Assembly (NCBI GenBank): GCA_041178425.1
Contig: JBEGVH010000006.1
Span: forward strand, 192,001 to 256,000
Reading direction: 5' to 3'
Source of the DNA: Pseudomonadota bacterium
GTDB taxonomy: Bacteria > Bdellovibrionota > Bdellovibrionia > Bdellovibrionales > Bdellovibrionaceae
DNA length: 64,000 nucleotides
Each line of letters opens with the position of its first letter. The first letter of the stretch is position 1. Positions 33,001 to 48,000 of this stretch are shown here, piece after piece. The position numbers are program-made.

Positions 33001-36000
33001 ACAAGCCCTTTATTATTGTGAAAAAACTGAACTTCTTCACAGCGTGGGAAAAACCTGTCATAAAATCAAAAAATACACAGCTTATCTTTTTGTTAGAAAC
33101 AAGTATTATGTTTCATTGAGGTATTTAAAAAAACCATTTGATCGAGGTCTATTTCGGTTTTGGTTTTGGATGAGGTGGCTGACTGAGACCCTAAATGTAG
33201 CCTTTCGTGGAAACAAAGAGGTCTTAGCCATTAAGCTTCAGATCGCTAAAGACCTCTTGTTAAAATAAGATCGAACGCAACAGTCTTTTATTCTATGACA
33301 TATTGAAAATTAACATTCACAACTTGGCCTCCAGAGGCCCCTTCAAAAGGCTTTCCTCCCATTTTATCGTAGGACAACTCCAATCCCAATTCACTCGTTA
33401 GGAGAACATTAAAACCCAGGCTTAGTTGAATATCGGTTCCTCTTACTTTGTAGCTATTAACACTGCAACTGGCCCCAGAAACCCCTTCGCAGCTCTTAGA
33501 GGCATTCACACTTATCACCGGACCACCAAAAACCAAAACACGCTCGCCAAGATGCAATCCAGCTGTTAGCGGCACGTTGATATTAGAAATTTTTAGATTT
33601 ACTTCGCTGTTACCCGAACCAATATTCAATGAGTTTTGAGCCAGAAGAGCCCCAAGTCGTACATCCACTGAATCAGTCATGGGTTGATAAAATAGAGCAC
33701 CGAACTGAAGACTTTGATCGTTATTGATATCTACACCCGTACTGCTATCGATATGCACCTGAGACACTCCAAGCGTCAATCCTACCCGCTGTGCAAAGGC
33801 TGAAGTGCTAAAGCCAACTAAAAGAGAGAAAATAAAAAGACTGTTTTTCATAGGAACACTCCTCCTACGAAAAGCATCCTGATTTTCCATGGGATTGTCT
33901 AGTAAACTTATTTTACTTACACTGCATTATCGAGCAGTGCGAATTCTTCGAGTAATTGGAGAATAATATGGTGAACCCTTCGCCTTTGAACATCAACACC
34001 CTGATCGGCGGTAAAAAACAAATCAGTAATACCCTTTAACTCAAGGCGATCGCGTCGATGTTTTTCAAGCGACTCCCCTTTTTTTACAATTTTTATAAAT
34101 CGATTATTTTTCTTAAAGTGCAGATAAATATCTTGTTCTGCCACCTCATCGGGGGAAATGGTTTCAACAGAACGACTCGCAAAACGATCATCGTCGGCCA
34201 TCTTTTCTAAGCGAAAGTAGCCGTAAAAAGCACAGCCGTGAGATGTTTCCTGCATGAAACAATAATTGCTCATTTTTACTAAAAAATTTAACTCAAGATG
34301 AGTGGGATCATTCATCTGAAAGTTTTCGATAAAATATAGTTTGGCTCCTGAAGATTTGATCACATTTTGCAGCTGCTTTAGTAGCGGTTCAAAAATCGGC
34401 TTAAGATTATTTTTTGGAAAATCAGAACCAACCAAAATCAAGCTGGAAAAGTTTTGGGTTTCAATTACGATACCTGTAATATTATAAATCTCGTGCGTAT
34501 CTTCGAAAGAAACGTGCTCACCCGCTTCAAAACGCTCAGTGCAGACCATCTGTAAGGCAAGCAAAGAAACGTCGTCGCGCATCTGAGTTTGTCGACCTTG
34601 ACTCGAACTACCTTTGCCTCTGACGTAGATTTTCTCTGAGTAACCTTTTTTGGATTTTCCCGTCATACCCTAATAACACTAGGATTTACAGAATTCTTCA
34701 ACCAATTACCCCTCAGAGGGCCATCAAAAACCCACCAAGGTCTAGATGGCGAGAAAGTCTTGTATCGAAAAAGGGCGGACTTAGCCCTTAACCGAAATTT
34801 TAGATGCGGCTTTGATGGCCAAGCTCTTCGCTTTCTCAACGGTTGAGCTTCTTGATAAAACCACAGCCATTCGTCGAAATGGCCTCATCGTTGGCTTACC
34901 AAAAATGCGCACATCGACATCTTTTAATTCGAGCGCTTTGTCGACTCCAGAGAATTTTGGTTGTTTCTCTGACTCTTTGGTTGCAAGAACAACAGCCGAT
35001 GCACTAGGGCCGTAATACTTTATGTCTGTGATCGGCAATCCTAAAACCGCACGAGCATGAAGATCAAATTCAGATAGGTTTTGCGAGATCAAAGTCACCA
35101 TTCCCGTATCGTGAGGACGCGGTGATAACTCAGAGAAATAAACATCATTTTTTGTAATAAAAAATTCGACACCAAATATTCCCGCTCCGCCAAGACGATC
35201 GGTCATTTTTTTTGCCATTTTTTGAGCCTTTTTTAATAACTCAGGCTTTATTTTTGCTGGCATCCAAGACTCGCGATAATCACCTCGTTCTTGCCGATGA
35301 CCAATCGGGGCAACAAACAGGGTTTTCCCTTTTCGTTGCTTCACCGTTAGTAAAGTGATCTCGAATTCAAAGGGAATAAACTCTTCAACGATTACTTTTT
35401 TCTTATCTCCGCGCATCCCTTCACAAGCATAATTCCAGGCCGTTTTTATTTGCTTTGACGATTTGATGATCGATTGCCCTTTGCCCGAGGATGACATGAC
35501 CGGTTTAATCACACAAGGGTAACCAATCTTGTCTGCGGCAGCGATCAACTCGACTTCACTCTGAGCATAAGCGTAGTTTGCCGTCTTGAGTTTAAGTTCA
35601 TGACTAGCTACATCACGAATAGCATCCCGATTCATTGTAAGATGGGCCGCTTCTGCTGTTGGAATAATGGTGAAGCCTTTGTTTTCAAGCTCCAGGAGTT
35701 TCTCTGTGCGAATCGCCTCAATCTCAGGAACAATCAAATCAGGTTTATGCTTTTTTACTAATCGATCAATTTCGTCCCCATCAAGCATGTCGATTACTTC
35801 ATAGGTATCCGCCACCTGCATGGCAGGAGCCCCTTCGTATCGATCAACGGCGATGACATATTGGCCTAATCTTTTTGCTGAAATCACAAATTCTTTTCCT
35901 AATTCACCTGAGCCCAAAAGCATAATTTTTTTCATAAACTTTCTCCTGTCATTAAGATCGCACGAACGGGGGAGGCTTCTGCCCCTTCGAGCTTCAAGGG

Positions 36001-45000: not shown

Positions 45001-48000
45001 TTTTTATATGAAAGTGTTCAGCCAAGAACTTGCAAACACTACCACTTGGCAACAAAAAGCCATCAGCGTTTCAAGTCATAATGGGGCCGCCGAACACATC
45101 GAGGCAGCGCAATCCCTATTGACTGAGAGTGAATGGGGACTCATGCAAACCCCACTTGATCTACCCTTAGTACAATTTGGCCGACAGGTGCGACGCCCTC
45201 GCCGCTGGTACAATAACTCCTCTGGGCACCACGCAGCGATTCTTCTTGGTTGCCGAATGAAGGGCTGGAATCGCGCGGGCTACACACTGCCTAATCACGA
45301 AGTTTATAAAGAATACGTTCAAGTTGTTCGTCGCTATTTAGGTGCCGACTGGAAACCACTCCGTATCGCCCGCGATGGTGATGGCCTGCCAACGGTAGCA
45401 ATGACCGTCAACGAACTGGCTCGTTGTTATGCGGGCCTCGCTAAACATCGCGAACAAGATTGGGTCTGGGAAAGCATGGTTCGCCATCCAGACTTAGTGG
45501 GTGGTTTTAATCGTCTTGATACAACAGTGATAAAGTCTTGCCATGGGCAAGTGATTGCCAAAGAGGGCGCCGACGGGCTTCTTGGAATGGCGATCTCGCA
45601 TCCTGACTATCCCAACGGTCTTGGCGTAGTGATTAAGATTGCTCACGGATGGAACCCACAAGCCACCTGGTACATTGCAAGAGGTATTTTAGGAGTGCTA
45701 GGCTTTGAGCTGCGCAATCCTTATCCCTTACGCCGACAAAAAGCCTTTTTGGTTCCGCAAATTGTGCCTGATAAATTTGTAAAAAAACTCGAAACAATTC
45801 CAACGTGGGACGAATGGGATCCTGATCACGATCGTTGGTACATGGGAGATTTAAATGTCTGAAACTCAATCTGAAAAAATCAACACCAATAAAGCACCAG
45901 AACCTGTCGGAGCTTATCCTCATGCTCGCCGTTTTGGCGACCTTCTTTTTTTGTCGGGCGTCGGCCCTCGCAAACCTGGAACAAAAAAAATTCCAGGGGT
46001 TGAACTCGACGATAATGGAGCTATCGCATCTTATGACGTGGTTACTCAAACAGAGTCAGTGATTGAAAATATTCGCATCATTTTAGAAGCCTCCGGTAGC
46101 TCTCTCGATAAAATTATCGATGTGCAGGTTTTTCTCACCAACATGAAAGCTGATTTTAAGGCCTTTAACGAGGTTTACGCAAAACACTTTACTTCTATTG
46201 GTGCTACTCGCACAACGATTGAGGTAGGAGCTCTACCAACACCCATCGCTGTTGAATTTAAAGTGATTGCCGCGGCTAAATAATTTTTATCGAGGAGTTT
46301 ATTCAATGATTAAAAATCAAAAACCTGTTTATTATCCTGATTACCTTCAATTATTTAAACTCTTGGATAGTCAGCATCCAAAAAGTCTTGAAGCCGGCAA
46401 AGAGGCTCACGATGAAATGCTCTTTATCGTTGTTCACCAGGCCTATGAACTTTGGTTTAAGCAGATTCTTCATGAACTAAAGCCGGTGCTCACCATTTTC
46501 AACAAAGAGCGCGTTGAAGAGCATGAACTTGGGTTTATCTTGGCGCGCTTCGAGCGGGTGATTAAAATTCAATCCCTGTTTCAGTCTCAGTTAGAAGTTC
46601 TCGAAACCATGACTCCTATGGATTTTCTTGAGTTCCGCGATCTCTTAATTCCAGCTTCTGGCTTTCAAAGCGTTCAGTTCAAAACGATTGAAACAGTGAT
46701 GGGCCTAACAACTGCCACTCGGTACACCGTCGACCGCGAGTCTTTCTTGGGCCGCCTCAGCGCCGGAGATAAAAAACAAATCGAAGACCTTGAAAAACAT
46801 GACTCTCTCTTTAAATTAATGGAGCGATGGCTAATTCGACTCCCCTTCACCGAAAAAACCAGCTTTGTTTTTTGGCAACAGTACGAAGCGGCTGTTGATG
46901 CGATGCTCGCAAAGGATGAAGCCGTCATTAATGACAACCCTCATACGAGCGATTTCGAAAAAAATATTCAAAAGGATTATCTTCAAACCACAAAACGAAC
47001 CTTTCAGAGTCTTTTCGATGATACAATTCACGATGAACTGATTTCAAAGGGTCAACGACGACTTGCTCGAAAGGCCATTCTCAATGCCTTGTTTATCTTT
47101 CTCTACCGCGACGAGCCGCTGATGCACCTGCCGTACAAGCTTTTAAATGCCCTCATTGATATTGATGAAAATTTCACCAGCTGGCGCCATCGCCATGCCA
47201 TGATGGCTCACCGAATGCTCGGAACAAAAATTGGAACCGGCGGAACGTCAGGGCAGGAATACCTAAAAAAGGCAGCAGACCAAAACCGAGTTTATCTCGA
47301 TCTTTTTAATCTATCGACCTTCATTATTCCAAAGTCAGCACTTCCGGTGCTTCCTCCTTCTTTAAGGCAAGAACTCAATTTTCACTATGCCTCAAAAACA
47401 GAAGGGATGAACCATTGAGGTGACCCCGTCGTAAAAATGGAGAGAGGGCAATATTTATTTCACCACCTCTCCTTGATTATTGTAGCAGTTTTACTTGCCC
47501 ATTAATGCCCCTTTCTGTAGTTTGCCGATTCGAAATTCAAAGGGGGCCTGGTCATGAAAGCATTTGCTTTATCTTTTATCCTTCAATTAGCTATTAGCTG
47601 TCCTATTTTTGCAGAAACGTCCAAAGACAACCTTCCTGACCTTGTGTCTCCCGATGAGCTTCAAGAAGAACTTCAATTACCCGAAGCCAAAACCCTTGTT
47701 TTTGATGGTGAATTTGAGACCTTAGGCATCGAAGAATGGTCCGACATGAATGGCATCGACCTCACCCAGCATTTTGAGGTCGTAGTTGTTGTAAACAAAG
47801 CGAAAAGCGGACCAGAAGCTCAAAAAGCCCAAGTTTATTTGAGCGGCCGCCACTACAAAACCTTCACGGTTTCGACCGGTCGCGAAAAACTCGAGCTCGC
47901 TCCTAGTGGTAAAGTCTACCGCTCCGTCACACCCCAGGGCTGGTTTCGCCCCATTTACTTTAGCCCGAATCACTTTTCTGAAACTTGGAAAGCCCCAATG

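Follow-up and report, generated by a model that had tools for sequence, protein, structure and literature searches.

Between 35932 and 47418, the window, a 64,000-nucleotide stretch of a Bdellovibrionaceae genome, holds every gene that the genome-wide survey's note had listed as a kynureninase-free tryptophan catabolic operon. Our scan of the window shows these genes to be arranged here as two divergent units rather than as one operon. The minus-strand unit has the order LLM–KynB–PurT and comprises a luciferase-like flavin monooxygenase (LLM; longest ORF 36585..37877; PF00296, 33.4 bits against 27.9), a KynB-type kynurenine formamidase of the cyclase family (35932..36588; PF04199; TIGR03035, 218.2 bits against a cut-off of 223.05) and, just beyond the module and directly 3' of KynB, the formate-dependent GAR transformylase PurT (34781..35935; TIGR01142 above cut-off). 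The KynB ORF overlaps the upstream LLM stop and the downstream PurT start; the KynB–PurT order recurs in 3 of 80 related loci and in the relative genome G107, and PurT may use formate released by the pathway. LLM likely starts at the ATG at 37832 or 37823; our query began one codon ahead of the second candidate Met, which left the results unaffected. The plus-strand unit consists, in order, of an atypical SDR (40550..41335; profile match), a 2-aminomuconate-semialdehyde dehydrogenase-like ALDH (AmnC; 41326..42774; best NCBIfam model TIGR03216, 579.6 bits, below cut-off), the 2-aminophenol 1,6-dioxygenase beta subunit AmnB (42826..43770; E = 1e-104 to 8IHG and 3VSG) and alpha subunit AmnA (43773..44771; E = 7e-41 to 7TXY_A; with a start and ribosome-binding site), a class 3 asparaginase-like hydrolase (ASN; 44768..45862; PF06089; aligned to 8CLY), a Rid-family 2-aminomuconate deaminase (AmnD; 45855..46283; PF01042) and tryptophan 2,3-dioxygenase (TDO; 46306..47418; PF03301, E = 3e-100; start at 46306, longest ORF from 46267). 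Between the two units lie, by profile match, a YkuD L,D-transpeptidase-like gene (YkuD1; 37982-39361, minus strand) and an LCM-type methyltransferase gene (39592-40461, plus strand), which are not module members, as they occur in 1 and 0, respectively, of the 80 loci around ASN relatives. Promoter and terminator scans gave hits at chance level (22 vs 18.5 and 18 vs 17.2). GC content (0.43-0.51 vs 0.44 for the genome) does not suggest recent transfer into this genome.

The 80-locus survey, in which neighbors were counted at ≥35% identity over ≥60 aa and many loci stop at contig ends, came close to the earlier counts when repeated: AmnA was found in 75 loci, AmnB and Rid/AmnD in 70 each, ALDH in 54, SDR in 45, LLM in 43, KynB in 4 and TDO in 3. 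Where LLM is present it is co-directional with the other module genes in 40 of 43 loci.

The distribution of these genes across genomes indicates what the module stands in for. Among 151 genomes of the Bdellovibrionales, LLM is present in 70, ASN in 63 and AmnB in 61, and KMO in 26, HAAO in 26 and kynureninase (KynU) in 25, and the overlap of the latter three with LLM, ASN or AmnB is 0, where 12 would be expected. All 63 ASN genomes carry LLM, and both states occur within four families. The exclusion is non-random as far as kinship permits, related genomes not being independent. It recurs in a Myxococcota sample of 201 genomes (LLM 29, KynU 38, overlap 0). The note's claim on kynureninase and HAAO is borne out. 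A Poseidoniia-class sample of 101 genomes has LLM in 93, TDO in 96 and KynU in 1, with an overlap of LLM and KynU in 1; genome G226, which has both, counts against the explanation that we favor below. TDO is carried by 135 of the 151 Bdellovibrionales genomes and by 68 of the 70 with LLM; 41 of the 135 have neither route. In the window's genome (100% complete), searches for KynU, KMO, HAAO and ACMSD found none, and identical searches were positive in 25-26 relatives. The upstream TDO and KynB and the downstream AMS dehydrogenase and deaminase are present there, KynB scoring just below and ALDH clearly below the NCBIfam cut-offs. Twenty classical clusters contain SDR (17), ALDH (19) and Rid (19), KynB is likewise common to both routes, and these clusters differ from the new module only in KMO, KynU, HAAO and ACMSD. 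Because KynB, ALDH, Rid and SDR are shared by both cluster types, the points at which the swapped module joins and leaves the pathway are fixed. LLM, ASN and AmnAB thus replace KMO, KynU, HAAO and ACMSD, a wider replacement than that of KynU and HAAO originally claimed.

The core of the module is the LLM–ASN pair. Of 46 loci in a distant clade, 40 have ASN immediately after LLM, 1 has AmnB and 12 have TDO; many of these loci are without a nearby tryptophan gene. Genome G011 has LLM–ASN–KynB–TDO in a row, and searches for a LigB-family gene found none in genomes G003, G011 and G078. As LLM and ASN are paired without AmnAB or any LigB gene, they would act before ring opening. Thirteen loci encode an ASN–KynB fusion, archaea have TDO–SDR–LLM–ASN runs, and LLM is linked to TDO in several lineages. 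Four genomes of one family (f3) have KynB–LLM, but only the ordinary class 3 enzyme, and neither KynU nor the special ASN. In the jakobid Andalucia, the LLM homologue carries a fused class I glutamine-amidotransferase domain, a Cys-His amide hydrolase; a motif hints that the end of this protein may be a flavin-reductase domain, for which there was no Pfam, NCBIfam or PDB match. The class I glutamine-amidotransferase family hydrolyzes gamma-glutamylanilide in aniline degraders (PMC4539516). The LLM–ASN pairs lacking AmnAB, the ASN–KynB fusions and the Andalucia fusion together favor the order of steps that the note had proposed.

LLM belongs to the luciferase-like superfamily by its PF00296 match and by the luciferase TIM-barrel fold of its predicted model (pLDDT 93.7, built from a 93-row alignment). 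The model matches luciferase alpha (Z 29.9, rmsd 3.1, 321 aligned) and 3,6-diketocamphane monooxygenase (Z 26.4, rmsd 3.7, 323 aligned), to which LLM is 15-18% identical; both are described as type II Baeyer–Villiger enzymes (PMC6352141). The structural match to RslO1 cited in the note holds (Z 29.6), but RslO1 is a proposed epoxidase and not a Baeyer–Villiger enzyme (PMC8093152); MsnO8 is an epoxidase as well. Every structural match is <20% identical, no NCBIfam model scored above cut-off, and PDB sequence searches returned no characterized close relative. With the fold common to epoxidases and F420 reductases too, fold alone does not pick the reaction, and Baeyer–Villiger chemistry is what we infer for LLM. 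A search for two flavin reductase families found none in the cluster, no PF01613 in the genome and one PF03358 elsewhere. Within 15 kb of a 40%-identical Streptomyces clavuligerus homologue there are no tryptophan genes.

ASN retains R73, S74, K77, S103 and K265, which correspond to Arg47 and the Ser48-Lys51 and Ser80-Lys263 tandems of class 3 enzymes; their equivalents in ReAV are reported as essential (PMC12292245). The motifs RSMMK (77 of 80 loci), SHNG (80) and AKEGADG (80) are kept, and K-E-G-A-D-G is the family mark. NNSSGHH (72 of 80) and DGDGL (71 of 80) are as the note had stated; however, loss of the zinc cysteines, offered there as a mark of ASN, is confined to a subclade, since C...DGC or DSC is retained by many LLM-linked orthologues, among them those of 7 of the 80 loci and most of the divergent members. 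The class 3 zinc site (Cys135/Lys138/Cys189, NCSGKH...DGC) is not kept in the window's ASN, which has S151, H154 and D205. In ReAV, zinc anchors the alpha-amino acid end of the substrate and C135A or C189A abolishes activity (PMC12951835, PMC11024299). Lacking these ligands, the window's ASN must bind the aspartyl group differently from ReAV. ASN is about 23% identical to the ordinary class 3 paralogue of the genome, and in a quick tree, which included five outgroup rows and drew warnings of long branches, it forms a branch separate from the ordinary class 3 enzymes. We class it, by sequence, as asparaginase-like and not as an asparaginase, and propose that it may be a beta-aspartyl-aminophenol hydrolase.

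AmnA and AmnB are adjacent LigB-type alpha and beta subunits. In AmnB, H22, H71, Y138, H204 and E260 are the same in all 67 orthologues and align to His13, His62, Tyr129, His195 and Glu251, which we take to be the iron ligands and the catalytic His and Tyr. The alignment of AmnB to known 2-aminophenol enzymes is gap-free, and by homology AmnAB is predicted to cleave 2-aminophenol. AmnD is fused to AmnA in two relatives. The SDR has S-N-x-x-R at the position where YxxxK is usual, and it is the best match in the genome for all four classical-cluster SDRs tested. While its place in the conserved set stands (45 of 80 loci), a part in the new chemistry, or as flavin reductase for LLM, is ruled out by its presence in 17 of 20 classical clusters without LLM; it probably acts after 2-aminomuconate.

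Altogether, the module very likely has a role in tryptophan breakdown, and many Bdellovibrionales and most sampled Poseidoniia appear to use a shortcut that probably takes kynurenine to aspartate and 2-aminophenol. Gene content and linkage, the fusions, the mutual exclusion and the folds are established, and from them we propose the following reactions. TDO would yield N-formylkynurenine and KynB, assigned by homology, would strip the formyl group. LLM, drawing on O2 and on FMNH2 made by a reductase encoded elsewhere, would place an oxygen atom between aryl ring and ketone, in kynurenine itself or in N-formylkynurenine, by a Baeyer–Villiger/Dakin-type aryl migration. The product, 2-aminophenyl beta-aspartate, would undergo an O-to-N shift to N4-(2-hydroxyphenyl)-asparagine, a substituted asparagine, which the Ser nucleophile of ASN, judging from the kept catalytic residues, would hydrolyze to L-aspartate and 2-aminophenol. 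By homology, AmnAB would convert 2-aminophenol to 2-aminomuconate semialdehyde, after which the steps of AmnC and AmnD would be those of the classical route. Three enzymes would thus do the work of four, without a PLP step and with release of aspartate rather than alanine and CO2. We regard this sequence of insertion by LLM, hydrolysis by ASN and ring opening by AmnAB as the best explanation overall and as reasonably probable. Besides G226, several observations weigh against it: a fold that fits epoxidases as well, the replaced zinc ligands of the window's ASN, the f3 genomes with their ordinary class 3 enzyme, a cluster in which neither flavin reductase family searched for is present, the Streptomyces homologue away from tryptophan genes, the 41 TDO genomes with neither route, and the distant-clade loci with no tryptophan gene close by.

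The same net products would arise if LLM, as a KMO analogue, made 3-hydroxykynurenine and ASN cut the aryl–carbonyl C–C bond in a retro-Friedel–Crafts reaction. The absence of LLM/KMO overlap in 151 genomes, the LLM–ASN pairs without AmnAB, and the hydroxylases and epoxidases among LLM-fold enzymes are all compatible with such a scheme. Yet the hydroxyl of 3-hydroxykynurenine lies meta to the acyl-bearing carbon and so would provide no activation, ASN retains acyl-serine amidase machinery, and the fused partner in Andalucia is an amide-hydrolase domain, making this scheme improbable. Even less probable is a variant in which AmnAB opens the ring of 3-hydroxykynurenine first, itself a substituted 2-aminophenol, and ASN acts as a C–C hydrolase freeing aspartate, with ACMSD as a parallel. 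In the close clade no trio is tighter than AmnB–AmnA–ASN (75 of 80 loci have AmnA), but the distant clade keeps ASN beside LLM and almost never has AmnB (40 vs 1 of 46 loci), three genomes manage without a LigB gene, and AmnB aligns without gaps to 2-aminophenol enzymes.

Two further schemes seem to us very unlikely. ASN takes the place of kynU, adjoining or fused to KynB, and might be a PLP-free kynureninase yielding anthranilate and alanine, with LLM as a decarboxylating anthranilate 1-hydroxylase that forms 2-aminophenol; decarboxylating aminobenzoate hydroxylases exist. An anthranilate-acting LLM should, however, often accompany KynU, whereas the overlap is 0/151, 0/201 and 1/101, KynU and the special ASN are both missing from the f3 genomes, which have KynB–LLM, and release of an alanine carbanion without PLP seems implausible. 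Alternatively, and with equally little probability, the module would scavenge another aminoaromatic compound derived from prey or detritus, its link to tryptophan being incidental: TDO is near-universal in these groups (135 of 151), of 80 loci, just 4 have an adjacent KynB and 3 an adjacent TDO, and the Streptomyces homologue has no tryptophan neighbors. This would leave unexplained the exclusion with KynU, KMO and HAAO that separate samples show, the ASN–KynB fusions, the archaeal TDO–SDR–LLM–ASN runs and the LLM–TDO linkage.

The Baeyer–Villiger route that we favor resembles several known systems in part. It has the same first enzymes (TDO, KynB) and last ones (ALDH, Rid, SDR) as the classical kynurenine/2-amino-3-carboxymuconate route (TDO, KynB, KMO, KynU, HAAO, ACMSD, AMS dehydrogenase and 2-aminomuconate deaminase), which is intact in up to 26 of the 151 relatives. 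Unlike that route, it is predicted to bypass 3-hydroxyanthranilate and would therefore have no quinolinate branch from tryptophan. Nitrobenzene degraders (Pseudomonas AP-3, JS45; Comamonas), with their amn meta-cleavage pathway for 2-aminophenol, and Actinobacteria, with the ARO microcompartment, also have AmnB, AmnA, AmnC-like and AmnD-like genes, but the module's neighbors include no nitroreductase or mutase, the genome has no AmnE-like match, and no shell-protein family of the ARO microcompartment was found among the 14 window proteins scanned (ORFs ≥90 aa). In contrast to both, the module would be fed by a natural upper pathway; PMC10470539 describes the natural precursor for ARO as unknown and use of the 2-aminophenol pathway as shown only in nitrobenzene and chlorobenzene degraders. 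With the class 3 L-asparaginases ReAIV and ReAV of Rhizobium etli, ASN shares the Pfam family, both Ser-Lys tandems and equivalents of Arg47, His139, Tyr156 and Asp187; it differs in its separate KEGADG branch, the replaced zinc ligands of the window's subclade and the KynB fusions in relatives. LLM shares the luciferase-like TIM barrel with the type II Baeyer–Villiger monooxygenases (bacterial luciferase, 3,6-diketocamphane), but is proposed to act on an amino acid that is an aryl ketone, and RslO1, a proposed epoxidase, is equally close. A literature search covering titles and abstract openings, with few subscription or older sources, found no description of a kynureninase-free route.

Taken jointly, these observations give slightly better than even support to a so far undescribed route that would lead from kynurenine to 2-aminomuconate semialdehyde without PLP, by means of a kynurenine Baeyer–Villiger oxygenase and a beta-aspartyl-arylamide hydrolase derived from class 3 asparaginases. 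Marine group II/III archaea, and many Bdellovibrionales and myxobacteria, would rely on it as their main way of degrading tryptophan; it would extend to at least one jakobid, and would be the natural source of 2-aminophenol from which the amn clusters for nitrobenzene degradation were recruited. If true, a much-studied catabolic pathway would gain a new branch with two unreported enzyme activities, and 2-aminophenol 1,6-dioxygenases would have a natural source of substrate. Many proteins annotated as L-asparaginase II are probably no asparaginases, and because the predicted intermediate is isomeric with 3-hydroxykynurenine (C10H12N2O4), metabolomics by mass only could misname it. Poseidoniia are abundant marine protein degraders, and the route would, if true, give a function to a gene block found in about nine-tenths of the sampled genomes of this class.

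Altogether, these data support a model in which a luciferase-like flavin monooxygenase (LLM), a class 3 asparaginase-like protein (ASN) and the 2-aminophenol 1,6-dioxygenase subunits AmnA and AmnB form a module that very probably converts kynurenine, or its formyl form, to 2-aminomuconate semialdehyde in tryptophan breakdown. Among 151 genomes of the order, each at least 85% complete and with ASN scored as present at E<=1e-60, LLM was found in 70, ASN in 63, AmnB in 61 and tryptophan 2,3-dioxygenase (TDO) in 135, and kynureninase (KynU) was found in 25 and KMO and HAAO in the same 26. 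The LLM/ASN/AmnB set and the KynU/KMO/HAAO set do not overlap in any of the 151 genomes (12 expected for LLM with KMO), and the families f1, f2, f6 and f12 of this sample each contain both states; p-values for the exclusion are overstated because related genomes are not independent. LLM is present in 63/63 ASN genomes, LLM, ASN and AmnB occur together in 60, and TDO is present in 68 of the 70 LLM genomes; neither route was found in 41 of the 135 TDO genomes. One genus (g4) has TDO in 19/19 genomes and KynU, KMO, HAAO, LLM and ASN in 0/19. Regions around KynU, taken from 20 of the 25 genomes, contain KMO (20), HAAO, ACMSD, aldehyde dehydrogenase (ALDH) and Rid protein (19 each), an SDR (17) and KynB (14). 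KynB, ALDH, Rid and SDR are thus common to both cluster types, whereas classical clusters have KMO, KynU, HAAO and ACMSD where the new ones have LLM, ASN and AmnAB, and it is this pattern that brackets the module between the two intermediates. The genome-wide survey's note had proposed a replacement of kynureninase and HAAO; the proposal holds, and it extends to KMO and ACMSD.

The window genome, rated 100% complete, conforms to this picture. No kynureninase was found in it and no HAAO; the control for the HAAO search gave no match anywhere, but the same family was detected in 26 relatives. Queries from relatives for KMO (its identity verified against solved KMO structures), HAAO, ACMSD, KynU and an oxalocrotonate-decarboxylase-like protein gave no tblastn match in this genome. 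The SDR (window 40550-41335), common to both cluster types, lacks the usual YxxxK; because the genome has no oxalocrotonate-decarboxylase-like match, this SDR is a candidate 4-oxalocrotonate reductase giving 2-oxoadipate. By ORF listing and family profiles, the whole gene set spans 35932-47418 on both strands, with LLM, then KynB, then PurT on the minus strand and SDR, ALDH, AmnB, AmnA, ASN, Rid and TDO on the plus strand up to 47418. A YkuD gene and a methyltransferase gene separate the two units, and the window genome therefore has a split version of the cluster: the genes named earlier for a tryptophan operon at 35932-47418 are all there, but they do not make up one operon. PurT (34781-35935, minus strand) directly follows KynB with a 4-base overlap, an arrangement also seen in 3/80 loci and in a further genome (G107), and could recycle formate from KynB. 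Elsewhere in the window, 28001-32000 has a GC content of 0.35 against 0.44 for the genome, with one ORF of 353 aa and a short one that looks regulator-like among its contents, and 50457-53062 carries what we take, from the translations, to be ordinary ClpS-like and ClpA-like genes.

The conserved gene set that the note had described around ASN recurred in our own survey: in the best 80 loci of 501 confirmed ASN relatives we counted AmnA in 75, AmnB in 70, Rid in 70, ALDH in 54, SDR in 45, LLM in 43, KynB in 4 and TDO in 3, and clustering of all ORFs in these 80 loci gave no further recurrent metabolic partner. The commonest order is SDR-LLM-ALDH-AmnB-AmnA-ASN-Rid on a single strand; two relatives have an AmnA-Rid deaminase fusion (L105:5459-6826, L107:5195-6664). 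The nearest named ASN records are Pseudobdellovibrionaceae assemblies (84-89% identity), and others belong to Poseidoniales, Myxococcota and Holophagae. Across 201 Myxococcota genomes, LLM (29) and KynU (38) again never coincide (5.5 expected). The class of a Poseidoniaceae record (101 genomes) has LLM in 93 and TDO in 96; KynU occurs in a single genome, G226, which also carries LLM and is the only genome seen with both. Its KynU (L197, G226:C29:6106-7323) has no pathway neighbours within the 4 kb read, making transfer or mis-binning possible. In 20 regions taken from the 93 LLM genomes for an LLM on a long contig, SDR, LLM, ASN and ALDH are present in 20/20, AmnAB in 14, Rid in 13 and TDO in line in 3. 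Every one of these regions (L199-L218) carries a single candidate gene for formyl handling, which encodes either an alpha/beta-hydrolase with HGGFW (9/20) or a divergent formyltransferase-like protein (PF00551; 11/20), as exemplified by L143:2368-3045 and L010:5241-6008; a cyclase-type KynB was not found in the 5/5 genomes of this class tested. The archaeal formyltransferase-like protein may either deformylate N-formylkynurenine or transfer its formyl group to tetrahydrofolate.

The minimal unit of the module is LLM plus ASN. One genome (G011) has LLM-ASN-KynB-TDO consecutively and two (G003, G078) have LLM-ASN, and no LigB-family gene was found in these three. In a distant LLM clade (about 37% identity to the window LLM), sampled via the monooxygenase and with a few near-duplicate loci, ASN directly follows LLM in 40/46 loci, with AmnB in 1, KynB in 15 and TDO in 12. 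In a quick tree that included five ordinary enzymes, a branch with 100% SH-aLRT support separates these from all 40 LLM-linked ASN rows, 39 of which have KEGADG after the second lysine. Because ASN persists in the absence of a ring-opening enzyme, its most likely substrate is the LLM product, ahead of ring opening. ASN-KynB fusions (13 ORFs, three confirmed by Pfam) fit either order, with kynurenine or N-formylkynurenine as substrate.

Kynurenine can be viewed as an asparagine in which a 2-aminophenyl carbon replaces the amide nitrogen. LLM would insert oxygen at the aryl-carbonyl bond, giving an aspartyl ester of 2-aminophenol that could shift to the anilide and so become a substituted asparagine. 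Aryl migration should be the preferred course with so electron-rich a ring, by analogy with the Dakin reaction. We regard such a Baeyer-Villiger mechanism as moderately probable. The LLM structure model (pLDDT 93.7, pTM 0.92) matches luciferase alpha (Z 29.9, rmsd 3.1, 321 aligned), RslO1 (Z 29.6) and 3,6-diketocamphane monooxygenase (Z 26.4). Luciferases and ketolactonases are classed as type II Baeyer-Villiger enzymes (PMC6352141) and RslO1 is a proposed epoxidase (PMC8093152), so that the fold permits the reaction without proving it. In the alignment, ASN retains the residues that the Rhizobium etli enzyme ReAV requires for acyl-serine catalysis (PMC12292245). In P0124, which is labelled Andalucia godoyi and is 1501 residues long, a 39%-identical LLM is fused to ApbE and to a domain of the class I glutamine-amidotransferase type, where Cys577 and His687 are present; the same junction recurs in a second sequence, a fragment. 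P0124 and P0227 represent this eukaryotic fusion of LLM, glutamine-amidotransferase and ApbE. The tail of this fusion may, judging by a sequence motif, be flavin-reductase-like. In aniline degraders, gamma-glutamylanilide is hydrolysed by the class I glutamine-amidotransferase family (PMC4539516). That the same oxygenase is partnered by two unrelated amide-hydrolase families (n=2 sequences) is easier to reconcile with an ester or an amide as product than with C-C cleavage.

Several observations weigh against the model or limit its reach. The zinc ligands of ReAV, which anchor the alpha-amino acid and whose loss kills activity (PMC12951835; PMC11024299), are missing in the window ASN, where His154 and Asp205 may stand in for them. 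The loss of zinc cysteines reported earlier is thus correct for this protein, and its ordinary class 3 paralogue on a different contig keeps NCSGKH/DGC, but it does not mark all LLM-linked ASN, as the quick tree nests cysteine loss within that group; L009 is an orthologue that keeps the cysteines. In family f3, four genomes have KynB-LLM, with TDO alongside in two, and a class 3 enzyme only of the ordinary type; G135 (300 contigs) has no class 3 enzyme. No flavin reductase linked to the cluster was found. LLM homologues near 40% identity occur in named actinomycete isolates, patchily among Actinoplanes, Micromonospora, Streptomyces, Amycolatopsis and Lentzea (L198:15001-16245; P0279-P0327). 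In the single actinomycete context read, a Streptomyces clavuligerus plasmid, no tryptophan or amn genes lie within 15 kb of the homologue; the function should therefore not be extended to this branch, which may act on another substrate.

The lower half of the new route is identical in kind to the amn pathway. According to PMC10470539, use of the 2-aminophenol amn route had been demonstrated only for nitrobenzene- and chlorobenzene-degraders, and the natural precursor for the ARO locus is given there as unknown; the main text does not mention tryptophan, kynurenine, asparaginase or luciferase. A preprint covers steps after 2-aminomuconate in eukaryotes only (10.64898/2026.06.05.730449). No description of an LLM/ASN tryptophan route was found in the literature at abstract level, with subscription journals thinly covered. 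The replacement module in tryptophan catabolism is real and widespread; it is apparently undescribed so far, and it combines known folds with two probably new activities.
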